A DNA stretch of 64,000 nt from Phycisphaerales bacterium (GCA_965228685.1 CBDDIA010000001.1:549-64548), one strand, 5' to 3'; positions 14,276 through 62,345 are shown, counted from the stretch's first letter. Notes: generated by a model from the letters alone, not told the origin. Numbers and translations are program-made.

Positions 14276-14278
14276 GGA

Positions 14279-15316
14279 TCAGTCCTCCGCCCCGCCGGTG
14301 TTCTGTTGACGCGCCTCGGGCGTGGGGATCTCGCCGTCAGAAATCTTGAGGATCTCGGGGTCGAACAGCTGCATCCCGTAATCCGAGGTCGAGAAGATCA
14401 GGGTGAACTTCTTGGCCATCGATTCACGCATGAGCTTGATGTTCTGGATGAAGACCGCGAGCTCGGGGTTGATGTTCTGCTGGGCAAGGTAGGGCGCTGC
14501 CTCTTCCTCACCCTTCGCGAGGATCTCGTCGGCGCGGCGCTGGGCGAACGCGCGGATCCGTTCGGCTTGGCTCGTTGCTTCTGCGTTGATCAGGCGTGCC
14601 TTGGAACGCCCCTCGGACTCGTACCGCTCCGCGAGCCGGTCGCGGTTCGCGCCCATCCGGTTGATGACCGCCCCGGTGGTTTCCTCGGGGAGCACGATGC
14701 GATCGATGCCGACGCTGATGATCTCGATCCCGTACGCGTCGAGCGATTGACCGCCCGTGCCGCCCTGGACGAGCAGCGATTGCACGGAAGACTCAAGCTC
14801 GGGGATGACGGATGCGCCCTGCTCGCTGGTGAACAGGTCTTCCATGCGGTACTGGCTCGTCTCACCCAGCGCACTGCGGAGCAGGTCACGCAGGACATCG
14901 TTCTCCGCCTTCGCGTAATGCTCCTGGGCACGATCGCCCGCGTTGGAGAAGCTGCGGAAGAACTTGAGCGGGTCCGACACGCGATAGAACAGGTACGACT
15001 CGACGATGATCTGGAAATCGTCCGCCGTCTGCACCGTCTCTGAGCGGGTCTGCACAAGACGGATCCGCTTGTCGTACTTCGTGACGCTCTGGAACGGGTA
15101 GGGTGCTTTGAAGTGCAGCCCGGGCTCGTCCACGATCGAGTTGTCGTTCGCGCTCCCGAAGGTCGTCTTGACCCCGATCTCCGTGAAACGCACGGTATAG
15201 GTCGCGCTAAACGCAATCAGCATCAGGATAAAGATGACCGCGAAGAGGGGGATGAACATTGATTTGAGCTTCAACACGGCTCGTTCTCCATTGTCGCACT
15301 GCTCGGCGAGGATCAC
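14279..15316 (-). CDS. SPFH/band-7 domain protein, HflC-like
   Basis: 345 aa. TM (MFIPLFAVIFILMLIAFSATY), then FTEIGVKTTFG...EPGLHFKAPYPFQSVTKYDKRI...TADDFQIIVESYLFYRVSDPLKF. It ends 3 nt upstream of the HflK-like gene. The start is uncertain (GTG 15316 or ATG 15259). Confidence 0.8.
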   Translation of the reverse strand: MILAEQCDNGERAVLKLKSMFIPLFAVIFILMLIAFSATYTVRFTEIGVKTTFGSANDNSIVDEPGLHFKAPYPFQSVTKYDKRIRLVQTRSETVQTADDFQIIVESYLFYRVSDPLKFFRSFSNAGDRAQEHYAKAENDVLRDLLRSALGETSQYRMEDLFTSEQGASVIPELESSVQSLLVQGGTGGQSLDAYGIEIISVGIDRIVLPEETTGAVINRMGANRDRLAERYESEGRSKARLINAEATSQAERIRAFAQRRADEILAKGEEEAAPYLAQQNINPELAVFIQNIKLMRESMAKKFTLIFSTSDYGMQLFDPEILKISDGEIPTPEARQQNTGGAED

Positions 15317-15363
15317 ACGCTCCGGGTGATCGCCCGGGCATTCATCACAAGGGGACTGGGTTG

Positions 15364-17490
15364 TTACTGAAGATCGGCGCCGCGTTCAGCATCGAACACG
15401 GTCGTCCCGGCCTTCTTATCCTGAAGTTCAAGGCGGATCTTGAGCGACTCGAGCTCCCCGGGTGTCAGGTACACCCGCGATTCTCGCATCGCGACAAGCA
15501 ACGCCTCGAAGTACATGTTGCTCCGGTACAGCTCCGGGGACGCGAGGTACGCCGCCTGCTGCCCTTGCAGCAGACTCGCGAGCCCGCGCTCGCTCATATG
15601 ACGCACCCACCGGTTCGCGCTGGCGCTGAGGATGAGCTCGCCCGCTTCGCCGCCTGCCCGTTCCAGCAGGCGCTGAACCTCGAGCTCGGCCTCGATAAAT
15701 GCGTCGGACTCGTTGCCCTCGCTTCGACGCAAGGCCTCGAGCACGACGAGCTTGGCGCTGATCTCCTCCGCAAGCTCGACCGAGCCCGCGATATCTGCGA
15801 GCATCGCGATCTGCTCTTTCCGCGCAAACTCGATCACCGACTCACGGTTCTGACGCGCGGAGATCACACGCTCGAAGGACGGCGCGACCTTGGTCGGCGG
15901 GTGCACGCCGTTGACCCCGACGAACAGGATCTCGATCCCGGCACCCTGCCCGTCGTTGAGCTGGGCGTACGCGTCTGTCAGTCGCTGCTTGAGTTCCGCA
16001 GGCATCGTGGTCCGATTTGTCGCGAGCACCTCGTCGATCGCAAGCTCACCCAGGTACTGCGTCACCACACGACGCCCGACCTGTAGCAGGACCTGATCAC
16101 GCTGACCCGGGGCTGCGAACTGATCGTACAGCTTCACATTGCGGACCACGAAATGCATGGGCACCTCAGCCGCTACCAGCGAGAGCTCTGCGACGCTGCT
16201 CGCTGCTTCATCGCTCGCGCGCGCTTCGATCTCTGGGTTCCGCTCGGGCTGGACGATGTTGAGACGCTCGCCTCGGGTGTGATTCTCTGTCCAGAGAATG
16301 ATGTTCTTGTCATCTTCGGGCGGGTTCGATGCAAGATGCAGCACACGCACACCGGTTGTGGTTCGGACTTCCTGATCGCCTCGCCCGACGGAGACCGGGG
16401 TCTCGTAAGTTGAGAACGGCCAGGGCCATTTCACATGCAGCCCCGGGCCGACATCGCCCTCACCCTTCTCACCGAAGCTGAACAATGGCTCGGAGATTAC
16501 GCCGTTGGTAAGAATCAACCCACGCTCGTGGGGCTCGACAACGACCATGGACGACATCAGCCACCCGATCCCGACCGCGATCGCGATCAGCGCGACGATC
16601 CACTTGCTCAGGAGCTGGTAAAACCACGAGCTCGTGACATCGATCCCGAACTGGTAGTTGACCGCTTCGCCGACATTCTCCGCGATCCGATCCGGTGCCG
16701 CGAGCAGACTCAAGAACCGCGAGTCAAACGCTGGTCGGGGTAGCTCGCCGGGCTTGCGGGGGCGGTACAGATCGAGCAGGAAGTTGAGGATGATCTCGAC
16801 GCCGTAAGCCATCATCCCGACCGAGATAATGTACGGGCCGTAGTTCACAAGGAAATCGATACCCAGCGCGAGCTGAAGGAACCCGCCGATCGCGAGCACC
16901 AGACCCACGAGCGCCGCCGCGACCGAGGTCGTCGCACCCGCTCGCAGGTTCGTCCACGCGTCGACCTTGGCCATGCCCGAAACGAACCGAGCGAAGACGA
17001 ACCCGACCACCGCGATCGAGATCCCGATCGCGAGCGCCCAACCGGGCTTGCTCGTTGTGTTCAGATCTCCGGGCTCGATCCCGCTGAACGCGCCGAACCC
17101 GAACCAGATCGTGATCAGCGCGAGCAGCAGACCCGTGCCTGGCACGATCCATTTATACATGAACGCGAGACGACGCGCCGCAACGCGGAGCTCGTCGTTG
17201 CTGTTCTCGAACGCGCTGGCTGCTGCGGCGCCGGACACCGCGAGCTGCTCGGCTTCCATCGCCTCGATCCGCTCGCGCCGGTGCTGATCAAAGACCAGAA
17301 GCAGCACACCCCAGACGAGGACCCCGCTGAGCAGGAACACCGTTCCCGCAGCCGCGCTGTCATCGCCTGAGGCCTGGGTATAGAAGAAGATCGTCAGGGT
17401 CAGCACGAGCTGGATAACCAGCCCGATGATGGCCGTGTTTGCCGCCTTGCGGTAAGTCAGATAGTCGCCCTGATTCATTGGGTGCGTCAT
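15364..17490 (-). CDS. Polytopic membrane protein (about 7 TM) fused to a C-terminal SPFH/band-7 domain
   Basis: ORF 15364..17580, with probable start MTHPMNQGDY at 17490. The N-terminal ~330 aa contain repeated hydrophobic helices. The C-terminal half has an SPFH-like core (ERGLILTNGVISEP...GPGLHVKWPWPFSTYETP...NIILWTENH...VPMHFVVRNVKLY). Confidence 0.7.
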   Translation of the reverse strand: MTHPMNQGDYLTYRKAANTAIIGLVIQLVLTLTIFFYTQASGDDSAAAGTVFLLSGVLVWGVLLLVFDQHRRERIEAMEAEQLAVSGAAAASAFENSNDELRVAARRLAFMYKWIVPGTGLLLALITIWFGFGAFSGIEPGDLNTTSKPGWALAIGISIAVVGFVFARFVSGMAKVDAWTNLRAGATTSVAAALVGLVLAIGGFLQLALGIDFLVNYGPYIISVGMMAYGVEIILNFLLDLYRPRKPGELPRPAFDSRFLSLLAAPDRIAENVGEAVNYQFGIDVTSSWFYQLLSKWIVALIAIAVGIGWLMSSMVVVEPHERGLILTNGVISEPLFSFGEKGEGDVGPGLHVKWPWPFSTYETPVSVGRGDQEVRTTTGVRVLHLASNPPEDDKNIILWTENHTRGERLNIVQPERNPEIEARASDEAASSVAELSLVAAEVPMHFVVRNVKLYDQFAAPGQRDQVLLQVGRRVVTQYLGELAIDEVLATNRTTMPAELKQRLTDAYAQLNDGQGAGIEILFVGVNGVHPPTKVAPSFERVISARQNRESVIEFARKEQIAMLADIAGSVELAEEISAKLVVLEALRRSEGNESDAFIEAELEVQRLLERAGGEAGELILSASANRWVRHMSERGLASLLQGQQAAYLASPELYRSNMYFEALLVAMRESRVYLTPGELESLKIRLELQDKKAGTTVFDAERGADLQ

Positions 17491-17879
17491 CCTCTGTCTT
17501 GATCGCGTGCTGTGCCCGCGAGCACTCGTCGCATGTCGGGTATCCGGTATCGCGCCTCGCGCGTCACCCCGTGCCCACACGCCGGGGTGGTGATACTAGG
17601 TGCATCAGTCGCATAAGTGGCAATCAACGCCCCGAACGCGGTTTCCTCGCCCCGATCGCGTCCCCAGCGATCCATCGGCGTGCGTGCAATGCCCCACCCT
17701 ACGATCACACACACGCAACGGTTCACACCCCACCGATCAGAATCTTCAACTTTCTCCAGACCCCCACCGAACCGATCACGCACAGACGCGTAGCACCAAC
17801 CGCAGCGTCCCCACATCCAGAACCATGCGCAGACCCTGCGCCCCCACACACGCCGCAAGCCACCCTATCATCCGCGTCC

Positions 17880-24474: not shown

Positions 24475-26784
24475 ATGTCCATCAACGACTTCGATCCCGA
24501 TATTTTGCAAGACTTTCTCACCGAGTCCGGCGAGCTTCTCGAAGAGCTCGAGAGCGATCTCGTTGACCTGGAAGCCACCCCGCAAGACCCGGAGCTTCTC
24601 AACCAGATCTTCCGCGCACTCCACACGATCAAAGGCAGCGCCTCCTTCCTCGCGCTGACCAATCTGGTCGCGATCGCGCACTGCTCCGAGAGCGCGCTCA
24701 ATGTGGCACGCAACGGGGACCTCGTCATCGGGAAGACCGAGATGGACCTGCTGCTCGCAGCCGTCGATGTCCTCAAAATCCAGTTCGAGGAGCTCAGCGC
24801 GGGCAACACCGACCTGACCGCTGCGGACCCCACCCTGATCGAGAAGCTCACCGTCCTCGGCGAGGGTGGGACAGTCTCCGGTAACACGGACGATCAATCC
24901 ACCCCGATCAGCCAGGCGGTCAGCGCCGAACCCATCATCGCCAGCGATGGGAGCACGCGCCAGCAGATCTCGCTGGACGCAGGAAAGCTCGATCTCATCG
25001 AGCACATGGCCAGCGATATCAAGAACACACTCGAGCAGGCGTCCGCGCGCCTCGGTGACCTGAACAACCAGGATACCCGCTCATCAGCGAACGCAAACCT
25101 TGAAGAGCTCTTCGAGGATGTCGTGAAGACCATCGATTTCTTCGAGATCGAACCCGTGATGAAGATCGCGACCACGCTCGATCAATCTATCGATCACCTC
25201 GCCCAGTTGAGCGATCCACAGATCGCCCAGCTCACCCCACGACTGATGGCACTATGTGTCCTGCTCAACGAGCAGACCGAGCAACTCACGAATCAGGTCC
25301 TCGTGACCTGGCCGACAGACGCGCTCTTTGAACAGATCCAGCGTCTCTGCGACGGCGAGGACCTGGGTGATGCGGACCTTCCCAAGAACGCCGATGCCTA
25401 CGACGCGCTGATGGCGTGCGGGATCTCGTTCGGATCGGACGATGCATCAACCGAATCGATTGGGACCATGCCCGATGCCCTCGTTGAGGACAAGCCCGCA
25501 CTATCCAGCGCACCCGTGTTGTCCGCCCAGGACAATACCGGCCAGGCGTCTCGTAGTAAGGGCGCCCCTGCCGCGATCGAGCAGACGATCCGTGTAGAGG
25601 TATCGCGACTCGAATCTCTGATGAATCTCGTCGGCGAGCTCGTACTCCAGAAGAACCGCATCGGTGCAATGGCAGAAGATGTCGCACGATCCATGATCGA
25701 GCCCGATCTCGTTGAGCAGATGGAAGTCACCGCGAGCACCCTCGATCGGGTCACCGGTGACATTCAGCTCGCGGTCATGCGGACCCGGATGCAGCCCCTC
25801 GACAAGCTCTTCGGGAAGTACCCACGCCTCATCCGCGACTTGGCCACCAAAACCGGCAAGCAGATCAACCTTGAGATCGTCGGTGGCGACACCGAAGTAG
25901 ACAAGTCCGTCATTGAAGAGCTCGGCGACCCCCTCGTCCACCTGCTCCGCAACAGCGCGGACCACGGTGTTGAAATGCCCGATGTCCGCTCAGCTGCGGG
26001 CAAGGACCAAACCGGCACAATCAGACTCGTCGCCGGGCACGAGGGATCGCATGTCTGCGTGCAGATCATCGACGACGGCAAGGGTCTCGATCGCGCCGTG
26101 ATTGGCGCCAAGGCCGTCGAACGAGGGCTCGTTTCCGAAGAACAGCTCTCGGCACTCCCTGACGAGGATGTCTTCCGGTTTATCCTCGAACCCGGGTTCT
26201 CGACCGCCGAAGCGGTCTCGGACCTCTCGGGTCGTGGCGTCGGGATGGATGTCGTCCGCACCAACATCGAGTCCAAGCTCAAGGGCGGGATCACGATCGA
26301 GTCCAAGAAGGGGCACGGGACCACGATCAACATCACGATCCCGCTGACTGTCGCGATCATGCCCGCGATGATGGTTGCGGTCTCCGACGAGGTCTTTGCG
26401 ATCCCGCTGACGAACATCACCGAGATCGTGAACCCCACCCCGGACATGCTCTCCAAGCTCGGCGACGAGCCCGTGATCCATCTCCGCGGGTCGGTATACC
26501 CCCTTATCAGCTCGCAGGATGTCTTCGATGTCCCCGAGCACGCCCGTCAGAATGAGCCCTTCGTGGTCGTCATCGGGTTCAACCAGAAAATCATCGGGCT
26601 GCGGGTCACACGCGTGATCGGGCAGCAGGAAATCGTGATCAAGCCCCTCGATGGGGTCAAACGAGACGGACCGATCTCAGGCGCGACGGTCCGCAACGAC
26701 GGCGGCGTCAGTCTCATCATGGACATCGCCGAGCTCATGCGTGTCTCTCGGAACCACCGCGCCGCTGTCGCTGCACACGCCTAA
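24475..26784 (+). CDS. cheA: Chemotaxis histidine kinase CheA
   Basis: 769 aa. HPt FRALHTIKGSASFL, N-box HLLRNSADHG, G1 IDDGKGLD, G2 SGRGVGMDVV, and a C-terminal CheW-like domain (FAIPLTNITEIV...GLRVTRVIGQQEIVIKPL). Confidence 0.95.
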   Translation: MSINDFDPDILQDFLTESGELLEELESDLVDLEATPQDPELLNQIFRALHTIKGSASFLALTNLVAIAHCSESALNVARNGDLVIGKTEMDLLLAAVDVLKIQFEELSAGNTDLTAADPTLIEKLTVLGEGGTVSGNTDDQSTPISQAVSAEPIIASDGSTRQQISLDAGKLDLIEHMASDIKNTLEQASARLGDLNNQDTRSSANANLEELFEDVVKTIDFFEIEPVMKIATTLDQSIDHLAQLSDPQIAQLTPRLMALCVLLNEQTEQLTNQVLVTWPTDALFEQIQRLCDGEDLGDADLPKNADAYDALMACGISFGSDDASTESIGTMPDALVEDKPALSSAPVLSAQDNTGQASRSKGAPAAIEQTIRVEVSRLESLMNLVGELVLQKNRIGAMAEDVARSMIEPDLVEQMEVTASTLDRVTGDIQLAVMRTRMQPLDKLFGKYPRLIRDLATKTGKQINLEIVGGDTEVDKSVIEELGDPLVHLLRNSADHGVEMPDVRSAAGKDQTGTIRLVAGHEGSHVCVQIIDDGKGLDRAVIGAKAVERGLVSEEQLSALPDEDVFRFILEPGFSTAEAVSDLSGRGVGMDVVRTNIESKLKGGITIESKKGHGTTINITIPLTVAIMPAMMVAVSDEVFAIPLTNITEIVNPTPDMLSKLGDEPVIHLRGSVYPLISSQDVFDVPEHARQNEPFVVVIGFNQKIIGLRVTRVIGQQEIVIKPLDGVKRDGPISGATVRNDGGVSLIMDIAELMRVSRNHRAAVAAHA

Positions 26785-33507: not shown

Positions 33508-35435
33508 ATGTACCGACTGCTTGTGCCGATCGTTCTGCTCTTGACCCTGATCGGGATCTCCGTGGTGTCCGACAAGCCGACCCCGCGCGCCGATCTTGTG
33601 TTCATCAACTCCTCGGATGTCAACACGCTCGATCCCCAGCGGATGAGCTGGATGCATGACCTGCGCACCGCGCGCCTGATCTACGAGGGGCTGGTACGCA
33701 ACGATGTCCTGAGTCACGGGTTCGACATCGAGCCCGCCGTCGCAGAGTCCTGGTCGATCTCCGACGACGCCAAGATCTACACCTTCCGGCTCCGAACAGA
33801 CGCGAAGTGGTCCAACGGCGAGCCCGTGACGGCGGAGGACTTCCGGTACTCCTGGCGCCGGGCGATGCTGCCAGATCTGGTCTCCGACTATGTCGCGATG
33901 TTCATGAACATCCGCGGCGCACAGGCGTTCTACGACTGGCGCACCGAGCAGCTCGACGCGTTCACCGATCGTGAGTTCGACTCACCCAGCGCCCGTCAAC
34001 AGGGCGCGTACGCGCTCTGGGACGAGACCAAAGCGAAGTTCGACGAGCTCGTGGGGATGCACGCGCCCGATCCGCACACCCTGATCATCGAGCTCGAGAA
34101 GCCTGTCCCCTACTTCCTGGAGTTGTGCGCGTTCGCGGTGTTCTTCCCGGTGCACGAGCCGCTCGTGGCGCAGTACGAACGCCCCGACCCCGAGTCCGCC
34201 CGTCTAATCCGGCGACCCGGGTGGACCCAGGGCGGGGTCCTCGTCTCCAATGGCCCGTTTACGCTCGAGCGCTGGCGCATGAAGCGCGACATGCGCCTCG
34301 AAAAGAACCCCCACTACTGGGATCGCGACAACATCGCGATCGATTCGGTCGACATCCCCTCCATCAACGACCCCAACGCGGGCGTGCTCGCCTATCAGAC
34401 GGGGGCCGTCGACTGGATCTCCGATGTGACGGCGTCCTATCGCGGTGAAATGGTCGAGCAGAAGCTCCAATACCTCCGCGAGCACCAGGACCAGGTCGAT
34501 CAGCTCCGCGCCCAGGGGCTCGATCAGTTCTCGATCGATCGCATGCTCCCCCCGGACCCGAGGGCGCACACGCACGCCGTCTCGTCGTTCGGGACTTACT
34601 TCTACAACTTCAACTGCAAGCCCTTCCTTCCCGACGGTCAGCCCAACCCGTTTTCTGACGCACGCGTGCGTCGCGCGTTCGCGATGTGCATCGATAAACG
34701 GGCCGTCGCGGATCAGGTCCGGCGCTTGGGCGAGCCTACCGCGCGCACGCTCATCCCCCCGGGATCGATCGGGGGGTACACCTCCCCAACTGGACTGCCA
34801 AACATCGGGGACGCGAGAGACAGCGCCGAGCGCGACGAGATCATCGCCCACGCTCAATCGCTCCTCGCCGATGCGGGGTTCCCCGCGGACTTCGTCGTCA
34901 CGCTCTCGTTCAACAAGGACGCCGGGCACGACCTGATCGCCCAGACGATCGCTAAGAGCTGGCAGAAGCACCTGGGCGTGCAGACCCGACTCGATCAGAA
35001 AGAGATCAAGATCTTCCGGGATGAGCTCAAGGACAAGCAGTACATGACCGCACGCGCCGGGTGGTTCGGGGACTACGGCGACCCGACGACCTTCCTCGAC
35101 ATCAACTACTCCACCGATGGCAACAACGATCGCGCGTACAACAACCCGATCTACGACGACCTGCTCGATCGTGCGAGCGTCGAGTTCGACCCTGAGCAAC
35201 GCATGGCCCTATTGAGCGAAGCCGAGCGGATCCTCGTCGAGGAGGATGTCCCCCTCGTCCCGATCTTTCATTACGCGACGATCTACATGTTCGACCCGCA
35301 CAAGATCACCGGGCTCTCCACGCACCCACGCACCAAGCAGAACGCGTTCCTGATCGATGTGCTCGGCGACGGCAAGGGCCCGGATGTCCCGCGCCCGATG
35401 CATGCATCGAAGACCGAAACGGAGGGCGATGAATC

Positions 35436-35439
<4 letters not shown>
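33508..35439 (+). CDS. ABC transporter substrate-binding protein, family 5 (peptide/nickel, OppA/DppA-like)
   Basis: 643 aa. N-terminal anchor MYRLLVPIVLLLTLIGISVV. LVFINSSDVNTLDPQRM, EPAVAESWSISDD, YYNFNCKPFLPDGQPNPFSDARVRRAFAMCIDK. Typical SBP_bac_5 size and order. Confidence 0.85.
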
Positions 35440-36440
<1,001 letters not shown>

Positions 36441-54376: not shown

Positions 54377-55216
54377 TCAGCAGCGAACCAGCTCATCCGC
54401 AATCGCACGCAGCGGCTTCCCTTGGAACCGCTGCGTTTCTCTTTGCGCCTTACGCCCACGCCCGGTCGTCATCCGATCCCACGCGTACGCGACGCGTCCG
54501 AGTTGGTACCGGATCGGGTGCCCGCAGATGTCGGGGTACTTCTTCTCGATCATGTCCCGCTCGGCCTGATACTTGGCGCTCCAGGTATCCGCGGATCCCT
54601 TCGCGTCCTCATGAATGCGGTGCACGCCGCAGTATCGCTCGAGGCGTTTCGCGTTGGTATTCGAGAGGATCCGGTACCAGAGCTCGGTATCCATCACGCA
54701 ATGCAGCGAGCGATCGACGCCTCCCACTCGCTCATACACATCACGCCGAAAGAAAGTACTCGGCTGATGGATCCGCATGTACCCGTACCGCATCCACTGA
54801 CGCGATGGGCCCGCGCGTCGGTCGCAGTGCATGACGCGTGAGTCGCCGTCGACGACGACCGTGTCCCCCTCGACCAAACCCAGCGAGGGATCCGCATCGA
54901 AGCAATCGAGCAGGGCATCGATCGCGCCGGGGAGGAGCGCGTCGTCGGAGTTGAGCCAGGTGATGACATCGCCCGTGGCGCGTGCGAACCCGTCGGCGAT
55001 CGCGTTGCTCTGCCCGCCGTCGGGCTCGGAGCGCCACCAATCGATCTGATCGGCATGCTTCTCGATGATGGCGCGCGACCCATCCGTCGAGCCCGCATCG
55101 AGGACGAAGAACTCCTTGACGCGATCGCGCTGCGACAAAACAGACCCGATCGCCTCTTCGAGGAATCGGGCCTGATTAAAACTGGGCATCACGATCGAGA
55201 GTGTCGCTCGCGCCAT
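54377..55216 (-). CDS. Family 2 glycosyltransferase
   Basis: 279 aa. LSIVMPSFNQARFLEEAIGSVLSQ, LDAGSTDGS, WLNSDDALLPGA. Confidence 0.85.
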   Translation of the reverse strand: MARATLSIVMPSFNQARFLEEAIGSVLSQRDRVKEFFVLDAGSTDGSRAIIEKHADQIDWWRSEPDGGQSNAIADGFARATGDVITWLNSDDALLPGAIDALLDCFDADPSLGLVEGDTVVVDGDSRVMHCDRRAGPSRQWMRYGYMRIHQPSTFFRRDVYERVGGVDRSLHCVMDTELWYRILSNTNAKRLERYCGVHRIHEDAKGSADTWSAKYQAERDMIEKKYPDICGHPIRYQLGRVAYAWDRMTTGRGRKAQRETQRFQGKPLRAIADELVRC

Positions 55217-55240
55217 GCGTTGTCCGTATGAGAGTTGGGG

Positions 55241-55571
55241 TCAGTTGACGCCGAGCAGTTCGATCTCGAAGACGAGATCCGACTTTGCAGGGATCGCGCC
55301 GGGGACACCGCGCTCGCCGTAGGCCTTTGCGTAAGGGATGGTGAGCTTGCGCTTCCCGCCGACCCTTCATGCCGGGGATCCCTTCCTGCCACCCCTGGAT
55401 GAGGTTGCCGAGGGGGAAGTTGATGGACTCGCCGCGGTCGTAGGATGAATCGAAGACGGTGCCGTCCATGAGCGTGCCCTTGTAGTGGACCTCAACGGTC
55501 GCGCCCGAGGGGCACTCGTCGCCGGATCCGACTTCGATGTCTTCGATGATGAGTTCGTTGATGTTGCTCAT
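55241..55571 (-). pseudogene. FKBP-type peptidyl-prolyl cis-trans isomerase with a 1-bp frame break at 55363-55365
   Basis: The frame from ATG 55571 reads [69 protein letters not shown], then nonsense. The next frame reads [40 protein letters not shown]. The coding strand has ATG AAG G GTC. The span of 331 nt equals 110 codons plus 1. Confidence 0.85.
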
Positions 55572-55626
55572 GGGTGTGTTCCTTTCGGTTTGGAGGGGAT
55601 GGTAGACACCCACATTGTGTGTGTGG

Positions 55627-57102
55627 TCAGAGACCGAAATACGCACTGACATACTCAGGAATTGAGGGGGATTTCGTCATCTTCACGACATCCAGCAGAC
55701 GCATCAGATCCCGCTTGGACTTCTCTTCGATCTGGACGGGGTCGATCTCGTCGTCGTCGAGTGTCCGGACGAACCGGTACCTTCGTCCGCCGTCCTCGCC
55801 CATGACACTTATGGGCTCGATCGCGCCGTACTCCGCGAGTCGGATGAGGACATAGTCCATGATCCCGCCGCCCATGCCGTGCGCGTGCCCCTTGCCGATG
55901 ACCATGACGCGGAGATCGTCGGAATCGAAGTCGTCCTCCGTGAATCGCGCCTCGATCGCGCTCATCGCCTGCATCATCAGGTCGGCGCTGGGGTTCTGCC
56001 AGCGGATGAACTCCTGCTGGATCGCGAGGTCCTCTTGGGCGTACAGGAGCTCACACACCGAGTCCTCGCCATCGCGCCCGGCGCGTCCGACCTCCTGGTG
56101 GTACGCCTCGATCGAGCCGGGGATCTGGGCATGGACGATGAACCGAAGATCGGGCTTGTCCACGCCCATCCCGAACGCGTTCGTGGCGCACAGCAGCAGG
56201 TTGTCGTCAGGGGTTGCCTCGATGAACCGTTCGTACACACGCTTGCGTTCACGCGGCGGCAAGCGTCCGTGGTAGATCTCGATGTCGCGCCGGGGTATCG
56301 CCCGTTTGAGCATCCCGGCCATCACCTCGAGGTCCTTGATGAGGGTGAAATACACGATCCCCGTCCCGCCGAGTTCGGCGCTGATCGACTTCACCCGCTC
56401 GATCTTCTCCTTGTCATCCCACACCTCGCGTGCACGCAGGGTCAGGTTCGGGCGATCAACGGGGGCTGCGAACAAGGGCATCTCTTCGTCCGTCATCCCC
56501 AGCACGCGTCGGATGTCCTCGCGGACGGGCTTGGTCGCCGTTGCCGTCAGCGCGATCGTGATCGGCTCGCCCAGCTCCTCGCGGAACTGCCCGATCTTCT
56601 GATACGCGGGGCGCAGGTCGTGCCCCCACTTGGTGACACAATGGCACTCATCCACTGCGAGCAGGTTCACGCCGCCGGGCACCTGCTCGAGCGCTTCGCG
56701 AAAGTCTGGCTTCTCCATCCGCTCGGGCGTCGCGTAGAACAGCTCGTACTCGCCATTCGCCAATCGCTCGTAGCGTTTCTTGCGTTCCTTCTTCCCGACC
56801 GTCGAGTTCACGAACTCCGCGCGGATCCCTTTGGATTTGAGGGCCGCGACCTGATCCTCCATCAGCGCGATCAACGGCGAGAACACCAGCCCGATCCCCT
56901 CGCCCCCGCTCTCCTCGCGCATCGCCAGCGCCGGGAGTTGGAAGCAGAGCGACTTGCCCGACCCCGTGGGCATGACGACCAGCGCGTCACCGCCATCCAT
57001 CACCCGCTCGACGATCTCGGATTGAAGCGGGCGGAGCGAATCGAACCCGAACCGGTCTCGGAGGGTCCGATCGAGCAGCGTTTGTGTATCAGCATCGGGC
57101 AT
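55627..57102 (-). CDS. recQ: RecQ-family ATP-dependent DNA helicase (short form, no HRDC)
   Basis: 491 aa. FRPLQSEIV, MPTGSGKSLCFQLPA, VDECHCVTKWGHDLRPAY, ALTATAT, ATNAFGMGVDKPDLRFIVH, YHQEVGRAGRDG. Confidence 0.88.
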   Translation of the reverse strand: MPDADTQTLLDRTLRDRFGFDSLRPLQSEIVERVMDGGDALVVMPTGSGKSLCFQLPALAMREESGGEGIGLVFSPLIALMEDQVAALKSKGIRAEFVNSTVGKKERKKRYERLANGEYELFYATPERMEKPDFREALEQVPGGVNLLAVDECHCVTKWGHDLRPAYQKIGQFREELGEPITIALTATATKPVREDIRRVLGMTDEEMPLFAAPVDRPNLTLRAREVWDDKEKIERVKSISAELGGTGIVYFTLIKDLEVMAGMLKRAIPRRDIEIYHGRLPPRERKRVYERFIEATPDDNLLLCATNAFGMGVDKPDLRFIVHAQIPGSIEAYHQEVGRAGRDGEDSVCELLYAQEDLAIQQEFIRWQNPSADLMMQAMSAIEARFTEDDFDSDDLRVMVIGKGHAHGMGGGIMDYVLIRLAEYGAIEPISVMGEDGGRRYRFVRTLDDDEIDPVQIEEKSKRDLMRLLDVVKMTKSPSIPEYVSAYFGL

Positions 57103-57179
57103 AGGAGGGGATTATTGCGTCCATCACACGATCCGACGCGCACGATTTGCTTTCGTTGTCGCGTCGCGATACGCTCATG

Positions 57180-57372
57180 ATGTTCAAGGTGCCCGGATTG
57201 AGTTCTCAGCCGGGTGAAAAGGGAAGTGTGGTGAAAAGCCACCGCGGACGCGCCGCCGTAATGGGCAACGAGTCCCGCTCACGCGATGGAACCCATCGCA
57301 GCCACTGGTGCAAAGAGGCATCGGGAAGGCGAGCAGGATACGCCCAGAGCCGGAAGACCTGCCCTGAACGAG
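57180..57372 (+). promoter_or_regulatory. Cobalamin (AdoCbl) riboswitch
   Basis: GTTCA...TGAAC P1. GGTGCC. AAAAGGGAAGTGTGGTGAAAAGCCAC. CGCGCCGCCGTAATGGG. GCCACTGG. GGGAAGGC. B12 box AGAGCCGGAAGACCTGCC. The order and spacing match the RF00174-type consensus as I remember it. No covariance-model scan was run. Confidence 0.85.
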
Positions 57373-57550
57373 TGTTCGACCCTCGCGGCTCTAGGGTGGA
57401 CGGCACGATCGTCGCCTCTCCCCGCGCCGATCCCCGTCTTCATCCCGCATGACCAGCCCAACCGTCGAACGAATGTTCACCGGGGAGTGCCCTGCGCGTA
57501 TCACAGGGCAGACTGGTACGGGCTTCTGTTTTCGCCCAGAAAGATGAGCC

Positions 57551-58397
57551 ATGCGCTCCACACACACACTGTGCGCCGTCATTGCCGGCGCGGTCCTGTC
57601 CACTTCCGCAGCCGCGGACATATTCGCGACGAGCGTCCTGAGCTACGACGCCGGGTCGAACGCGGCTGCGGGATACACCACCGCTGCTGCTGCGCTCGGG
57701 TCTGCCGAACGCTTCACCGGCGAGGGCGTCTTTCCCCGGCGGTGTCACCCCCTTCAACCCCGCGTTCGGCACGGACGAGCTTGTCTCCGTCGGATCGGGC
57801 GGGCACCTGACCCTCGGGTTCGATTCGACGATCACCAACAGCGCCTCGCACGCGTTCGGGATCGACCTGATCGTGTTCTCTAACTCCGGGTTCCTGGACA
57901 CATCGTGGTCCGACGCGGACCCGAGCAACGACGGCACCGGGCTCGTCGGATCCAACCCATTCGTCTTTGGTGCCGGCGGTGAAGCAACCATCCAGGTCTC
58001 ACAGAACGGTACCGACTGGTTCACAGCCTCGATCACCACACTCGACCTGTTCCCGACACTCGGGTTTTCTGACTTCACCGAGACCACCCCGGGCGCACCG
58101 GGGCTCGTGGAGTCAAACTTCGCCCAGGCGATGGACCCGACCCTCGCATTGAGCGACTTCGCGAACCTGACCTTTCGCGGAGATCGTCGCGCTCTACAAC
58201 GGATCGGGGTGGCGGGATCGGGATCGACATCGCGTCCACCGGGCTCGAGTCTGCGAGCTATGTCCGGTTCCTCAACGAATCGGGCGAGGCATTCGAGATC
58301 GACGCCGTCGCGGTGGTCCCCGCGGCCGGGTGTCCTCTTCATGCTCGGGCTCGGGGGTATCTTCGCAACCCCGCGCCGGCGCGCACGCCACGCGTAA
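57551..58397 (+). pseudogene. Secreted PEP-CTERM-anchored protein, first gene after the B12 riboswitch, interrupted by four 1-bp frame breaks
   Basis: The signal peptide MRSTHTLCAVIAGAVLSTSAAA is in the frame of 57551. Skipping one base at each of 57734-57737 (C4), 58173-58175 (T3), 58206-58209 (G4) and 58324-58327 gives a continuous 280-aa protein. It reads ...GEGVFPGGVTPFNPAFGTDELVSVGSGGHLTLGFDS...LTFAEIVALYNGSGGGIGIDIASTGLESASYVRFLNESGEAFEIDAVAVVPAPGVLFMLGLGGIFATPRRRARHA and ends in a PEP-CTERM-like sorting signal. 847 nt equals 281 codons plus 4. Confidence 0.7.
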
Positions 58398-58477
58398 CCC
58401 TGCCCTCATTCGCACGCCGCCCCCTCTCTGGCGTGCGATCGCGCTGGCGTCCGTGAAACACCGGACGCTGCGCATTC

Positions 58478-60023
58478 ATGAACACGAACCCATCCATCGC
58501 AATCGCGTCGTTGATGATTGTCTCGTCCACGCTCTGTGCACAGCTCGCGGTCGAGCACACCCCAACGCACGCGCCGACACCAGTTGACGGAAGCGGGATC
58601 TGGACGCACTTCACGGGCAACGCAATGCGGAACACGGTGCCGAGTGTCGCGATGATGCCGTCGCTCGAAACCCCCTCGTGGGTGAACACCGACCATGTCC
58701 CCGTTGCACAAACCGGTCTCGTCGTCGATGATCGCCATATCTACGCGATGACCGTGGAATCCGGAAACACCTACTTCGCGGTTGCGCTCGATCGCGTATC
58801 AGGCGAAGAGATCTGGGCATCACCGATCGCGCCGGTCATCCTCGATTCGTGGTCGTCCCCCGCGCTCGACATCGAGCATGGCACCCTGATCATCGCGACC
58901 GGCAGCACCATCGTCGCACTCGACATTACCACCGGCGAGCAGGTCTGGTCGCACACGCTCAGCTCTACGATCGTCAACGCATCACCGGTCGTCACCAATG
59001 ACCTCGGCGATCGCGATCGCGTGCTGATCACCAACTACTCGTTTGGAGGGCTCGGCAACGCACAGCTCATCTGCATCAACATCGATCCGTTCAACGCGGA
59101 CACCAACCCCTATCACCCGGGCGATCTCGTCTGGGCGAAAAACCTCGGCGCCGACTCATCGGGGAACACACCCGCGTACCAGAGCGGGCGGGTGTACCTT
59201 GCGACGGCGAGCAACGGGAGCGGTTCACGCGGCACCATCCGCGGCTACGACATCACGGAGGATGTCGCGCCGGCATCGCCGCTCTGGTCGTTCACCAACA
59301 CGATCAACGCCGGGTTCTTCGGCGGCGTGTCGATCGCCAAGGGGCACATCTACGCGAGCTCATACTCGTTCAGTGGGTTGCAAACCAGCGCCAACACCGT
59401 GAAGCTCAACAAGAACACCGGCGCACTCGTCTGGTCCGTCTCCACCAACCGCACCGACGCGACGCCCATCGTCCTCCCCAACGGCGATGTCATTGTCTCC
59501 GCGGGCGTGGCGCAGGGCGTAAACCAACAACATCCCATTCTTCGGCACCATCCCCAGCATCTCCTACATCGATGACGCAGGTTCATCCGCGATACTCGCG
59601 TGGGATTCCTTCCTCGAGACCCACGACGACACGAACACCAACGGGTTCTGGGATTTCGGCGAGTCGTACCTCTCCATCGGCGGGTGGACGCATCAACCGA
59701 TCGCGATCAGTGTGAACAACATCCCGCACCTGCTTGTCGGGACGCTGCCACTCAACTCGCCGGTTTCGTACATTGGGAACAACACCGACCTACGCCTGAT
59801 CGACCTCACCAAGTCCCCCACCGATGCGGGGTTCATTGTTGATCATGCAACGGACACCGGGAACACCCCTGCGATCGCGTCTGGGTGGATCTACTCCGGG
59901 TCCGATGAAGGCATCAAAGCATTCGCACGGCCGTCGTCGCTGCTCGCTGTCCGTTCGCTCGTCGATCGTTACACCCGCGGCGAGCTCACCCTCCACGAAC
60001 TGCTGGAGCGGCTCCCTAGATGA
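58478..60023 (+). pseudogene. Secreted PQQ-like beta-propeller repeat protein with one 1-bp frame break at 59521-59523
   Basis: ORF 58478..59575 has a signal peptide (MNTNPSIAIASLMIVSSTLCAQ) and repeated blade motifs (IYAMT...ALDRVSGEEIW; IVALDITTGEQVW; VKLNKNTGALVW). It ends in nonsense after ...VSAGVAQGV. The next frame continues (T)NNIPFFGTIPSISYIDDAGSSAILAWDSF... into ORF 59712..60023. 1546 nt equals 515 codons plus 1. Confidence 0.7.
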
Positions 60024-60835
60024 CCAACGCCCAGCGTCCATCACGGGGATTCACGCTCATCGAGCTGCTGGTCGTCATCGCGATCATTGCGCTGCTCGTC
60101 GGGATCTTGCTCCCCGCGCTGTCGCACGCACGCGACTCGGGCAAGGCGATGGTGTGCGCGTCGAATCAGCGCCAGCTCATCACCGCGTTCACGATGTACA
60201 CGGACGACCATCGCGGGTACGCGATGCCGCACCTCTACGCATCGGGGATCACGCGCACCTACTGGTACGGGCGAGAGAACATCGCGACCCAAGCGCTCGA
60301 TCACACGCTCGGCACACTCACGCCCTACCTCTCCGCGGCACCGGGTGATCGATCGGTCTTCGAGTGCCCCGATCAGCCCGAGGGCTCGTACCACACGCAG
60401 GGATCGACCGGGTCGTACACCTCGACATACGGGTACAACGCGTACGGGCTCTCGCCCAACACATCGGGATACTTCGAGCTCTACAACCAGCGGACGCTCA
60501 CGCTCGCGCAGATTGATCGCCCGTCCGCCCAGCTCGTGTTCGCCGACGCGATGATCGTGCTGTTCTCGGGACAACCCTCAAACTCCGCGCTGCTCGACCC
60601 GCCCATGCTCTATGCGCCCAACTCCGGATGGCGCGAGAACTTCTCCCCCACCACCGCGTTCCGTCATCATCGACCCGATGTCGGGTTCGGCAAAGCGTTC
60701 ACTGCTCGCGCGGACGGGTCCGTGCTCTTCGATGTCCACGACCCCGACGCACGCAACATCGAACTCCACGGTATCGGATCGATCGCGTCCGACAACGACC
60801 CGAACTATGTCCAGCGCATGGAGAGGTGGCGCTGA
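60020..60835 (+). CDS. DUF1559 protein with prepilin-type N-terminal cleavage/methylation domain
   Basis: 271 aa. SRGFTLIELLVVIAIIALLVGILLPALSHARDSGKAMVCASNQRQL. ATGA overlap with the propeller gene stop. Confidence 0.85.
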   Translation: MTNAQRPSRGFTLIELLVVIAIIALLVGILLPALSHARDSGKAMVCASNQRQLITAFTMYTDDHRGYAMPHLYASGITRTYWYGRENIATQALDHTLGTLTPYLSAAPGDRSVFECPDQPEGSYHTQGSTGSYTSTYGYNAYGLSPNTSGYFELYNQRTLTLAQIDRPSAQLVFADAMIVLFSGQPSNSALLDPPMLYAPNSGWRENFSPTTAFRHHRPDVGFGKAFTARADGSVLFDVHDPDARNIELHGIGSIASDNDPNYVQRMERWR

Positions 60836-61059
60836 TGTTCGTCGATCGATGCGTTTGCTTGAAGGTTCCGTTCAGACTCCTCGATCAGATCGTGGAGAAC
60901 GAGCACGATGTCGAGACCGAGACCATCGAATCGATCTTCGAAGCGCTCCAGAAACGCACCAAGTGCTCCACGAACTGCGGCATGTGCCGCCCGTACATCC
61001 TCCGCATGATCGAAACCGGGCAGACTAGCTTCGTCCCCTTCCCGCCCAACCAGCGCTGA
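60835..61059 (+). CDS. BFD-like (2Fe-2S)-binding domain protein, 74 aa
   Basis: TGATG overlap with the DUF1559 stop. MFVDRCVCLKV...KCSTNCGMCRPY gives the C-x-C...C-x3-C-x2-C cysteine pattern of bacterioferritin-associated-ferredoxin-like domains. Confidence 0.65.
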   Translation: MFVDRCVCLKVPFRLLDQIVENEHDVETETIESIFEALQKRTKCSTNCGMCRPYILRMIETGQTSFVPFPPNQR

Positions 61060-61077
61060 CGCCCATATCATCCGGGT

Positions 61078-61809
61078 ATGAACGACACGATTAAGACCAT
61101 GCGTGCGCACCGCTCGATCCGCATCTTTAAGGACGAGCCGATCCTCCAAGATCACATCGAGCAGGCGATGCTCGCGGGGCAGGCCGCCGCGACGAGCAGC
61201 GCCGTGCAGCCGTACTGCGTCATCCGCGTTACGGACGACGACACCCGCCAGCAGATCGCCGATCTCGCCGGGCCACAACAGAAGGTCCGCGATTGCCCCG
61301 CGTTCTTCATCATCTGTGCCGACCTGCGCAAGCACAAGCTCATCACCGAGCGTACGGGCAGCACGCACATCACCTCGCTCGAAGCCTTCCTCGTCGGCGC
61401 GGTCGACGCGTCGCTCTTCGCACAGAACTTCGTCCTCGCGCTCGAGTCCCTCGGGTACGGCACATGCTACATCGGTGGGATTCGCAACGATCTGCCGCTC
61501 GTCGACAAGCTCCTCAACCTCCCGCAGGGCGTGCTCCCGCTTTACGGGCTGTGTGTCGGTCTCCCTGATCAGGACCCGGCGCACCGCCCGCGTCTCGCGT
61601 CATCCGCGATGCTCTTCGAGGACCGGTACCCCGACGACGAGACCACGCTCGCGCAGATCGACGCGTACGACGAGGAGTACAAGCAGTACCTCTCCGATCG
61701 CGGCGCCGAGCCCGCGACCTGGTCGCAGGCCATCGCGAACCGGTTTTCATACGCCAAACGCCCGGGGCTGCGTGCGTACTACGAATCCAAGGGTGTTTCG
61801 CTCGATTAA
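61078..61809 (+). CDS. NfsA-like oxygen-insensitive NAD(P)H nitroreductase/flavin reductase
   Basis: 243 aa, alignable by eye along its length to E. coli NfsA. HRSIRIFKDEPI, FFIICADLRKH, YIGGIRNDLPLVDKLLNLPQGVLPLYGLCVGLPDQDP, RPRL. Confidence 0.85.
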   Translation: MNDTIKTMRAHRSIRIFKDEPILQDHIEQAMLAGQAAATSSAVQPYCVIRVTDDDTRQQIADLAGPQQKVRDCPAFFIICADLRKHKLITERTGSTHITSLEAFLVGAVDASLFAQNFVLALESLGYGTCYIGGIRNDLPLVDKLLNLPQGVLPLYGLCVGLPDQDPAHRPRLASSAMLFEDRYPDDETTLAQIDAYDEEYKQYLSDRGAEPATWSQAIANRFSYAKRPGLRAYYESKGVSLD

Positions 61810-61829
61810 CTCCGGAGTCCATCAAAACC

Positions 61830-62345
61830 ATGAAGCACGCACTCTTTATCATCATGCTCGTCGCGGGGATCACGACCCTTGCTCTTGCTCAGCCCACCAG
61901 ATCGCCACGCGACACGGGCGGCACACGCGTGATCTATGTCGTCCGCCATGCGGAGAAAGCATCGGGCCCTGACCCGGTGCTCTCCGAGCAAGGGCACACC
62001 CGGGCCGATCGGCTCGCCCAGATGCTCAAGCACGAACCATTGAGTGCCGTCTTCGTGACCGATACGAACCGATCTCGCATGACCGGCTCGCCCAGCGCGG
62101 AAGTGCACGCGATCGAGACCACAACTTACCCCGCGACCGATCCGCACGCCCTTCGCTCGAAGATCGAAGCGCTCCCGCACGAATCAAACGCGTTGGTGAT
62201 TGCACACTCCAACACCGTCTCGCTGATTCTTGAATCGCTTGGCGCCCAATCCATAGGCGATCTCCCCGAGGACGAGTACACGCGTGTATTCGCCGTCGTC
62301 CTTCGCGACGGGTCGCATATCCGCACGCTCAATCTCTCGTACTGA
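61830..62345 (+). CDS. Histidine phosphatase superfamily (SixA/PGAM-like) protein with signal peptide
   Basis: 171 aa. MKHALFIIMLVAGITTLALAQ signal, VIYVVRHAEK (RH catalytic motif), LVIAHSNT. Confidence 0.75.
   Translation: MKHALFIIMLVAGITTLALAQPTRSPRDTGGTRVIYVVRHAEKASGPDPVLSEQGHTRADRLAQMLKHEPLSAVFVTDTNRSRMTGSPSAEVHAIETTTYPATDPHALRSKIEALPHESNALVIAHSNTVSLILESLGAQSIGDLPEDEYTRVFAVVLRDGSHIRTLNLSY

Follow-up and report, generated by a model that had tools for sequence, protein, structure and literature searches.

A cobalamin riboswitch heads a conserved set of exported-protein genes in Phycisphaerae, probably an undescribed means of scavenging vitamin B12

Results and Discussion

A genuine cobalamin riboswitch stands at the head of the g1 operon in the window (the whole stretch of DNA analysed, 64,000 nt), and the conserved unit is the riboswitch followed by g1, g2, g3 and often then g4. 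Since the riboswitch controls a conserved exported set whose relatives adjoin classical B12 transporters, this set is probably a bacterial way of scavenging B12 that has so far gone undescribed; we found no published account of such a system. With a role in corrinoid acquisition, which we infer from genomic context only, the unit is likely to be the Phycisphaerae version of a widespread, hitherto unannotated part of the cobalamin regulon that serves corrinoid scavenging in the envelope. If true, the module would supply the outer-envelope step of cobalamin import, either as an addition or as a replacement.

To our knowledge, all characterised cobalamin riboswitches are OFF switches. In the mechanism that we propose, low intracellular cobalamin would release the switch and allow expression of the operon, whose products would work in the envelope, scavenging external corrinoids. 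The g1 protein would act as a surface-tethered capture protein, analogous to BtuG, BtuH and BtuJ in function though not homologous to them, while a complex of g2 and g3 would hand the vitamin inward to an inner-membrane importer encoded elsewhere, and g4, a small cytoplasmic protein, may give electrons for handling the imported corrinoid.

Table 1. Positions of the riboswitch-led unit and of its downstream neighbours in the window
Feature	Position	Strand	Description
Cobalamin riboswitch aptamer (RF00174)	57170..57380	+	Covariance-model match
Conserved leader	57381..57550	+	Putative expression platform; alignment of 10 loci
g1	57551..58397	+	Signal peptide, ~230-aa beta-sandwich domain, PEP-CTERM-like tail; 280 aa once repaired
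g2	58478..60023	+	Secreted 514-aa 8-bladed PQQ_2/BamB-like beta-propeller
g3	60020..60835	+	Prepilin-type protein, divergent DUF1559 subfamily, 271 aa
g4	60835..61059	+	74-aa BFD-like [2Fe-2S] protein without signal peptide; optional operon member
NfsA-type NADPH nitroreductase/flavin reductase	61078..61809	+	NF008033, 233.4 vs equivalog cutoff 223, full length
Secreted histidine-phosphatase-superfamily protein	61830..62345	+	His_Phos_1, 35 bits vs 21.7

The riboswitch and its leader

The Rfam scan with the RF00174 covariance model, proposed in the earlier note on this DNA, gave a match over the full model (1-189) at 57170-57380 on the + strand with 88.1 bits against a gathering score of 31.5 (E 2e-20), and this match contains the + strand AdoCbl riboswitch previously called at 57180-57372. 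The B12 box, AGAGCCGGAAGACCTGCC, occupies 57346-57363, and 170 nt lie between the aptamer end and g1 on the same strand. This leader is ~84% identical among the 10 loci compared and holds a hairpin at 57488-57510 (TGCCCTG / CGCGTATCA / CAGGGCA) with compensatory changes in 5 of the 7 pairs of its stem; across loci the stem covaries and the loop CGCGA stays constant. Because the loop of this hairpin (GCGCG) complements CGCGC, an invariant stretch of the aptamer, the hairpin is a candidate kissing-loop (P13) element, and switching would operate through the leader. A putative RBS, AGAAAGA, stands ahead of the g1 ATG. No intrinsic terminator was found in the leader, nor any terminator or promoter signal above background between the leader and the genes, and the decoupling of the genes by a terminator and a promoter of their own, which the earlier note had named as a possible refutation, thus found no support.

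Conservation of the unit and integrity of its genes

Among 48 Phycisphaerales genome loci, where propeller identity falls as low as 31%, a same-strand riboswitch was present at 44 of 44 testable propeller loci, and it recurred at six of six further loci. The riboswitch-gene association, suggested earlier for checking in related Phycisphaerae, is hence found in every testable relative. Four of the six further loci, reached via g1, have unrelated genes on either side, therefore the unit moves as a module. One locus (L041) has the riboswitch, g2 and g4 only. The g2 stop and the g3 start overlap as ATGA (60020-60023), a 4-nt overlap retained in 42 of 47 relatives, and the g3 start is thereby translationally coupled to the g2 stop. 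An overlap of TGATG (60833-60837) joins g3 to g4, and the gaps of 18 nt before 61078 and 20 nt before 61830 were likewise as first reported. Detected in ~25 of the 48 genome loci, g4 also occurs in versions of the unit that have no propeller. Most g1 loci outside the Phycisphaerales, many non-planctomycete loci among them, lack g2, therefore the components may not work together as a single machine. The g1 gene, whose family comprises 982 clusters, is the broadly conserved element and the propeller is lineage-specific, which runs against the scaffold role once given to g1.

The caveat that the first two genes carry frame breaks was borne out: g1 has four single-base insertions, near 57731, 58171, 58206 and 58324, and g2 has one break at ~59509-59530. 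Decay of the cluster in this genome, with g1 and g2 as true pseudogenes and the riboswitch as a relic, would account for five frame breaks within 2.5 kb and for the same shortened 365-aa ORF in the public record, but it is barely credible, given that the g1 breaks are all +1 insertions at short homopolymer runs and that the aptamer and leader are intact. Moreover, intact g1 orthologues are 93% identical to repaired g1, and the comparison with L001 (93% protein identity, 86.5% DNA identity) shows that the change is mostly synonymous. Since two other genes of the window, FKBP and Mfd, are split alike and relatives are intact, the frame breaks are probably assembly errors, not biology.

Association with B12 transport genes

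In locus L056, a riboswitch (RF00174, 111 bits) is followed by genes for a PEP-CTERM protein, homologues of g1 (40% identity) and g3 (31% identity), both full length, and a small lipoprotein, and then by BtuF-, BtuC- and ATPase-like genes with best NCBIfam matches to BtuF, BtuC and a corrinoid ABC ATPase. Counted with a covariance model trained on Rfam-validated examples, g1 lies downstream of a cobalamin riboswitch in 67 of 80 metagenomic loci of its family; the 13 loci with no riboswitch are all explicable by contig ends or by a g1 internal to a longer cluster. Run against 875 kb of control DNA, the nhmmer riboswitch profile gave no extra match, and shuffled DNA likewise yielded none. Truncated RF00174 matches also lie upstream of two more distant g1 genes. 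Furthermore, 18 loci carry two back-to-back riboswitches, one before a TonB-dependent receptor with the B12 receptor model as its top match (BtuB-like) and the other before g1 alone.

The Phycisphaerae loci themselves encode neither transporter genes nor a TonB-dependent receptor, and no BtuB or BtuFCD family member was found among the genes of the window; for all six genes the first reading, that none is btuB, btuFCD, cob/cbi, metE or nrd, is correct. The unit proteins show no likeness by sequence or fold to known B12-binding proteins. The BtuFCD-like operon and the BtuB-like neighbours give the B12 capture and uptake module of the earlier note strong support from context, while its six-gene composition, its BtuG analogy and the roles that it assigned were not supported.

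Proteins of the unit

Searches of Pfam, NCBIfam and the PDB found no relatives of g1, and DUF4465/BtuJ (PF14717) gave no match in g1, its orthologues or its distant homologues at cutoffs as lax as E<=10 or E<=1. The AF2 model is of moderate confidence only (pLDDT 66), with weak CBM32/discoidin-like structural matches (E of at least 2.5e-3). The C-terminal tail, VPAPG-hydrophobic-RRRR, is conserved. The PEP-CTERM models (PF07589/TIGR02595) do not match the window copy, and the orthologue P0121 reaches 12.3 vs 20.7; g1 homologues do exceed the cutoffs (26.3 vs 20.7; TIGR02595, 26.7 vs 16), so that the PEP-CTERM label falls below threshold in the window and is supported at the level of the family. 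Exosortase genes were seen near a single locus, L050, at a distance of 5 kb; polysaccharide export genes are also found near L050.

The g2 propeller scored 45.2 against a Pfam cutoff of 27.6 for PQQ_2 and was modelled by AF2 with a pLDDT of 87. Tetrathionate hydrolase, YxaL and BamB are the best PDB neighbours of this model, and the hits of a PDB profile search with g2 were limited to BamB, PQQ-type enzymes and tetrathionate hydrolase. Pfam does not place g2 in the PilY1/PilC family. No lipobox was found in g2, whose signal-peptide Cys lacks conservation and whose cleavage region has AQ at its end. BtuG gave no sequence match to g2, and the structural comparison of the repaired propeller with BtuG that had been suggested left BtuG outside the 50 best Foldseek matches, all of them 8-bladed and PQQ/BamB-type. 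A BtuG-type propeller is not supported (eight PQQ/BamB-type blades, no lipobox, no BtuG match), and the analogy drawn earlier has no specific likeness behind it. Some propellers of the family have dockerin-like tails (PF00404).

The propeller family has one invariant Cys and one near-invariant His, and together with tetrathionate hydrolase and PQQ-dependent dehydrogenases among the best structural neighbours and with the retention of riboswitch, g2 and g4 alone in L041, this would suit an enzyme system of g2 with g4, either an extracellular or periplasmic enzyme (a hydrolase or an oxidoreductase) for the release or remodelling of corrinoids, or a replacement, itself independent of B12, for some B12-dependent step. 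We consider this highly improbable: the non-enzymatic BamB and YxaL are equally good neighbours, g2 is strictly coupled to the pilin-like g3, and g4, lacking a signal peptide, cannot meet the exported g2. Besides, we know of no B12-dependent reaction in the envelope.

In g3 the prepilin N_methyl motif scored 36.3 vs a cutoff of 21.2, and pilin matches in the PDB were confined to the N-terminal helix (GspG, ComGC, PilA). The PF07596 (DUF1559/SBP_bac_10) score of the window copy is 15.8 vs 23.3, but all 19 scanned orthologues match this model at E<=0.1 (best 6.6e-9) and that of L023 is above the cutoff with 27.2. Similarly, g4 reaches 21.3 bits vs 26 for Fer2_BFD (PF04324), and the Pfam match of its L050 orthologue is unmarked; among 18 orthologues the cysteines C6, C8, C48 and C51 of the CxC...CxxC pattern are invariant and C44 is nearly so. 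The DUF1559 and BFD labels given earlier are therefore below threshold in the window copies and supported for the families.

A different reading of these proteins is a behaviour module for B12 starvation in place of an uptake system, in which low B12 would induce a lectin-like surface adhesin (g1), the propeller and the pilin; these would serve in attachment to particles or B12-producing partners, or in remodelling of the exopolysaccharide layer. It is unlikely, since the co-operonic BtuFCD-like genes and the paired riboswitch-BtuB-like arrangement of the 18 loci favour transport of the ligand itself, and riboswitch regulons seldom extend past the metabolism or transport of their own ligand. 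In its favour, the g1 model is similar to CBM32/discoidin domains, which bind carbohydrate, exopolysaccharide systems have a known link with PEP-CTERM proteins, exosortase and polysaccharide export genes are found near L050, and the pairing of pilin and propeller recalls, by analogy, PilY1 adhesin tip complexes; dockerin-like tails on some propellers point the same way.

Downstream neighbours

The NfsA-like and histidine phosphatase labels of the two genes after g4 hold, both being above their cutoffs. The NfsA-type gene was rejected as BluB (TIGR02476; 36.8 vs 150, N-terminal 60 residues only) and the phosphatase as a CobC-type alpha-ribazole phosphatase (no CobC model match, weak SixA and PspA matches only). 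Although NfsA may be co-transcribed with the unit in this window, both genes are synteny neighbours only, not members of the conserved unit. In 16 genome loci they are separated from g3/g4 by a convergent gene pair, in other loci rpoC follows the unit and NfsA and the phosphatase are absent, and the presence of the phosphatase varies across genome loci. Since RecQ, FKBP and a downstream aspartyl-protease-like gene are as syntenic as these two, their linkage reflects genome order.

For these reasons the six-gene unit first described was divided, and a full six-gene system, with BtuG-like capture by the propeller, a scaffold of g1 and g3, and corrinoid reduction and processing by BFD, NfsA and the phosphatase, is quite improbable. 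In the window the six genes are all tightly packed on one strand and no terminator is predicted, NfsA and the phosphatase remain close by in many relatives, and flavin reductases are able to reduce cob(III)alamin; yet the propeller has no BtuG similarity and most g1 loci beyond the Phycisphaerales lack it, nor do NfsA and the phosphatase correspond to BluB and CobC.

Comparison with known systems

In Bacteroidetes, BtuB has as accessories BtuG, BtuH and BtuJ, B12-binding lipoproteins exposed on the cell surface (bioRxiv 10.1101/2025.07.01.662609). Like these riboswitch-repressed, surface-tethered accessories encoded beside B12 transporters, g1 relatives adjoin riboswitch-led BtuB-like receptors and BtuFCD-like importers. 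In contrast, the unit proteins have no sequence or fold relationship to them, the putative g1 anchor is a PEP-CTERM tail and not a lipid, the Phycisphaerae loci have no TonB-dependent receptor, and g2, known from sequence and model, is 8-bladed and PQQ/BamB-like with a type I signal peptide. With BtuB-BtuFCD import the unit shares the riboswitch family and its position, and relatives of g1 and g3 are co-operonic with BtuFCD-like or paired with BtuB-like genes, whereas the window genes lie outside these families.

Type IV filaments with a tip propeller (PilY1 with minor pilins), T2SS pseudopili and competence pili resemble the unit in the g3 prepilin helix, which matches GspG, ComGC and PilA, and in the translational coupling of g3 to a gene for a beta-propeller, here a non-pilin one. 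They differ in that g2 is outside the PilY1/PilC family, the globular part of g3 is DUF1559 with no known pilin domain, and the loci encode no assembly ATPase, platform or secretin. Competence pili pull DNA in, and by analogy a fibre-based uptake logic for g2 and g3 is conceivable. Planctomycetal crateriform structures carry pili-like fibres that bind dextran, for which a role in uptake was proposed (PMC5394234); that work concerns a polysaccharide in Planctomycetia and names no genes, and the likeness to the operon, by description only, lies in a planctomycete envelope and in fibre-associated binding of a large solute. DUF1559 (PF07596), a domain of unknown function, forms the largest group of paralogues in P. 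limnophila (PMC10632474). The g3 orthologues match PF07596 and have the typical prepilin leader of these planctomycete expansions; unlike them, the g3 subfamily is divergent, with its window copy under the Pfam cutoff, and has a regulatory clue in the cobalamin riboswitch.

The riboswitch and its operon in Phycisphaerales genomes

The cobalamin riboswitch that the earlier note had read from the sequence was confirmed with the Rfam model RF00174 (88.1 bits against a gathering score of 31.5). Six same-strand ORFs lie 3' of it, with junctions exactly as that note had described, and a scan for intrinsic terminators and sigma-70 promoters gave no signal over background that would decouple the genes from the leader. 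From the aptamer to g1, the gene for a secreted beta-sandwich protein, the leader spans 170 nt; it is ~84% identical between close relatives, and its folding from a single sequence was uninformative (z = -0.29). A leader hairpin is retained in distant loci, with compensatory changes at five of seven stem pairs; its loop is conserved as CGCGA, and the loop GCGCG has its complement in an invariant stretch of the aptamer, CGCGC. Cobalamin riboswitches use a kissing-loop design, and judged by its sequence the hairpin fits this design as a candidate kissing loop with the aptamer.

Features of the window and of related loci
Feature	Location	Strand	Remark
Mfd/TRCF	718-2796 and 2658-4160 (span 718-4160)	-	two overlapping ORFs
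FKBP-type isomerase gene	55176-55652	-	split by frameshift
Cobalamin riboswitch	57170-57380	+	RF00174, full length, E 2e-20
B12 box	57346-57363	+	within the riboswitch
Leader hairpin	57488-57510		
g1	57551-58397	+	secreted beta-sandwich protein
g2	58478-60023	+	secreted propeller
g3	60020-60835	+	prepilin-type DUF1559 protein
g4	60835-61059	+	BFD-like 2Fe-2S protein
Gene 5	61078-61809	+	NfsA-type reductase
Gene 6	61830-62345	+	secreted histidine phosphatase
Convergent gene pair	L004, L006, L007, L015, L018, L019, L021-L023, L025, L026, L028, L029, L045, L049		
Convergent gene pair, example	L007 10578-12240	-	3' end of the operon
Gene order in L056			PEP-CTERM protein, g1 homologue, g3 homologue, small lipoprotein, then BtuF-, BtuC- and corrinoid-ABC-ATPase-like genes
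Back-to-back riboswitches	L066-L070, L074, L078, L079, L081, L083-L086, L092, L100-L102, L122		
Conserved ~600-650-aa protein	L100 2727-4502, L102 2348-4291	-	after the BtuB-like receptor

With a profile of the repaired propeller (g2), we collected 48 species-level genome loci (31-74% identity), all from Phycisphaerales, Phycisphaeraceae or unclassified Planctomycetota MAGs. In 44 of the 48, Rfam detected a same-strand RF00174 at a distance of 1.0-1.8 kb upstream of g2; the remaining four loci offer less than ~1.3 kb of DNA on that side and fall outside the testable set. The order g1, g2, g3 was found by tblastn in nearly all genome loci, with independent gene calls concurring, and g4 in ~25 (tblastn); one locus (L041) has the riboswitch, g2 and g4 only. 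The best-conserved member is g1, with 58-93% identity where the propeller has 40-74%. Of 47 relatives, 42 share with the window the 4-nt overlap between g2 stop and g3 start, an arrangement that speaks for coupled synthesis in stoichiometric amounts. Four Phycisphaerae loci reached via a distant g1 subfamily have unrelated flanking genes, and all four carry, in this order, RF00174, g1, a PQQ_2 propeller and an N_methyl/DUF1559 gene, some also BFD. The riboswitch-led operon of exported proteins is real and conserved. In one clade (L019, L021-L026, L028-L030) the window's divergent RecQ is replaced by a tRNA gene (65.9 bits), the same one throughout, at ~400-600 nt upstream of the riboswitch.

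Frame breaks in g1 and g2

By translating in three frames and aligning with an orthologue that is intact, we located four insertions of a single base in g1 (near 57731, 58171, 58206 and 58324), all four at short homopolymer runs; g2 has one frame break near 59509-59530. Close relatives encode intact g1 and g2 proteins of 281 and 514 aa, and the same truncated ORF is present in the public MAG contig (64,559 bp). Repaired g1 is identical to its orthologue in the related locus L001 at 93% of protein and 86.5% of DNA positions; most changes are therefore synonymous, a sign of past purifying selection. Elsewhere in the contig, one of the two Mfd ORFs holds the UvrB-interaction part and the other the helicase/TRCF part, and this split together with that of the FKBP gene points to a general indel error rate. 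We read the frame breaks in g1 and g2 as assembly errors.

Proteins of the unit and its downstream border

In the g1 protein a signal peptide precedes a highly conserved ~230-aa domain, and the tail reads VPAPG-hydrophobic-RRRR; the protein has no sequence relative in Pfam, NCBIfam or PDB. Its AF2 model is of moderate confidence (pLDDT 66, pTM 0.68), with a beta-sandwich core giving weak CBM32/discoidin-like fold matches (E at least 2.5e-3); these matches and the empty database searches led us to reject DUF4465/BtuJ or another known B12 binder as its identity. The lowest-confidence loops of the model coincide with the most conserved stretches, as might be expected for a binding surface. At one related locus, the DNA ~5 kb upstream of the riboswitch unit (L050 2179-5677, minus strand) encodes exosortase EpsH, EpsI and a protein for polysaccharide export, consistent with PEP-CTERM sorting of g1.

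The propeller g2 matches PQQ_2 and gave a confident model (AF2 pLDDT 87), whose nearest structures are 8-bladed propellers of the PQQ/BamB type, namely tetrathionate hydrolase, YxaL, BamB and PQQ dehydrogenases. The earlier note had likened it to BtuG; this analogy failed, with BtuG absent from the sequence matches and from the 50 best structural matches. Some propeller homologues (P0099, P0106, P0114, P0118, P0120; L041 7596-9272) carry a C-terminal extension of dockerin-like, calcium-binding repeats, a feature that suggests extracellular tethering. In g3 a prepilin N-methylation motif is present and pilin matches are confined to the N-terminal helix; the window copy scores 15.8 bits for DUF1559, under the cutoff, and all 19 orthologues scanned match DUF1559 (best 6.6e-9). 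The match of g4 to BFD is sub-threshold, with the CxC...CxxC cysteines of BFD kept.

The earlier note had taken all six genes as one unit, and here the comparison spoke against it. In 16 loci g3/g4 and NfsA are separated by a convergent gene pair, whose products are another pilin-like (N_methyl) protein (~270 aa) and a membrane-anchored one (~285 aa); in more distant loci rpoC follows g3/g4 convergently, with both NfsA and the phosphatase missing. RecQ, FKBP and a downstream aspartyl-protease-like gene have synteny equal to that of NfsA and the phosphatase, and on these grounds we regard the latter two as neighbours by genome order. Gene 5 is NfsA by NCBIfam (233.4 bits, cutoff 223) and was rejected as BluB (36.8 bits, cutoff 150); gene 6 matches His_Phos_1 and has no CobC match in NCBIfam. 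These scores rule out a lower-ligand pathway of BluB and CobC at the tail of the cluster. The minus-strand pair of pilin-like and 285-aa membrane protein was also considered as g1/g3 paralogues and dismissed, only the pilin N-terminus being alike and the pair being convergent and without a riboswitch link. The large ORF after g3/g4 in distant loci, considered as a possible B12 enzyme, is rpoC on the opposite strand, the plus-strand ORFs there being shadow ORFs.

The g1 family and its links to B12 transporters

An exhaustive profile search yielded 982 clusters of the g1 family (50% identity) at E<=1e-3 and 709 at E<=1e-10, most of them full-length proteins of ~270 aa with canonical VPEP...RRRR tails. 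At L056, a longer same-strand cluster is led by RF00174 (111 bits) and contains full-length g1 and g3 homologues (40% and 31% identity), and the best NCBIfam matches of its last three genes are BtuF (95 bits), BtuC (261 bits) and a corrinoid ABC ATPase (270 bits). Two further distant g1 genes on short contigs have 5'-truncated RF00174 matches upstream.

Scanning metagenomes with the g1-family alignment gave 80 loci, whose sources are soils, sediments, freshwater, mats and brines. Of these loci, 65 were matched by an nhmmer profile built on 50 Rfam-validated aptamers; as a control the profile recovered from 875 kb exactly the 54 Rfam-positive sources, one match each, and returned zero matches from shuffled DNA. 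A covariance model of 20 Rfam-validated aptamers gave 86 matches, most full length (50-145 bits), in 67 of the 80; in the other 13, the upstream DNA is short or g1 lies inside a same-strand cluster reaching the contig end. The propeller is present in 16 of these loci, and g1 with g3 and without propeller in 22, some with g4; other architectures are the L056 type with btuF and L064, with BtuFCD-like genes divergent from the unit. Eighteen loci carry two full-length cobalamin riboswitches back to back, ~100-250 nt apart. On one side the riboswitch heads a BtuB-like TonB-dependent receptor (top NCBIfam match the B12 receptor model, 129-154 bits, under the equivalog cutoff) followed by a conserved protein of ~600 aa, and on the other a monocistronic g1-family PEP-CTERM gene. 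The g1 and g3 families are repeatedly linked in genomes to known B12-transporter classes under the same riboswitch. The protein following the receptor has no PDB or NCBIfam relative, with weak TSP_3, dockerin and NHL hints only (L100, L102), and may be another B12 accessory protein.

Tandem same-strand cobalamin riboswitch matches precede a g1-family gene in L117 (1807-2003 and 2172-2472, plus strand). In four loci of low GC (0.40-0.47; L072, L075, L082, L088), with no riboswitch within the DNA at hand, g1 is preceded by a secreted protein of ~220 aa with a VPDSG/PEP-CTERM-like tail; L088 also encodes a second g1 paralogue and a 508-aa TSP_3 protein.

Proposed role in B12 acquisition

Few microbes make B12 and many others are limited by it; to our knowledge, detailed accounts of its capture at picomolar concentration are confined to BtuB-type systems and Bacteroides accessory lipoproteins. 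We rate the unit as a probable riboswitch-controlled B12 acquisition accessory system made of unrelated parts. The new B12 capture module put forward in the earlier note stands in outline, with strong comparative evidence, and falls in its six-gene extent, its BtuG analogy and its central component, here proposed to be g1 in place of the propeller. The riboswitch would act as an OFF switch and the operon products would serve corrinoid acquisition at the envelope, with g1 as putative surface capture protein, g2-g3 as a presumed coupled transfer device and g4 as a possible cytoplasmic electron carrier.

There is a fair chance that the unit conceals a truly new uptake route. A specific and rather doubtful version is that in Phycisphaerae B12 might cross the outer envelope independently of any TonB-dependent receptor, passing from riboswitch-controlled, PEP-CTERM-anchored g1 to g2 on the DUF1559 pseudopilin g3, in a fibre like a type IV filament, and on to the periplasm. 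Literature searches turned up neither a description of the gene set nor an account of PEP-CTERM or DUF1559 genes preceded by a cobalamin riboswitch. The only remark on DUF1559 concerns P. limnophila, where it is the largest group of paralogues and its function is unknown (PMC10632474). Bacteroidetes have accessory proteins that bind B12 at the cell surface (bioRxiv 10.1101/2025.07.01.662609), and planctomycetal fibres bind dextran (PMC5394234).

The g1 proteins form a family absent from Pfam (982 clusters) and controlled by cobalamin riboswitches across many environments, with partners that vary between BtuB-like receptors, BtuFCD-like importers and, in Phycisphaerae, the propeller and DUF1559 pseudopilin. 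This offers a testable role for three families without a known function, one being a subfamily of the planctomycetes' largest paralogue group, and raises the question of how these bacteria bring a 1.3-kDa vitamin through the outer membrane. Were the TonB-free fibre reading true, it would give the huge planctomycetal DUF1559 expansion its first function, add a new vitamin-uptake route and make g1 the founder of a family of surface proteins that capture B12 in multiple lineages.

The remainder of the window has no B12 genes and is otherwise ordinary. It encodes three SPFH/Band-7 proteins beside an ABC-2 transporter, and also a CheA kinase and, with its permease, an ABC binding protein of the oligopeptide type (12800-17580, minus strand; 24475-26784 and 33508-36440, plus strand).
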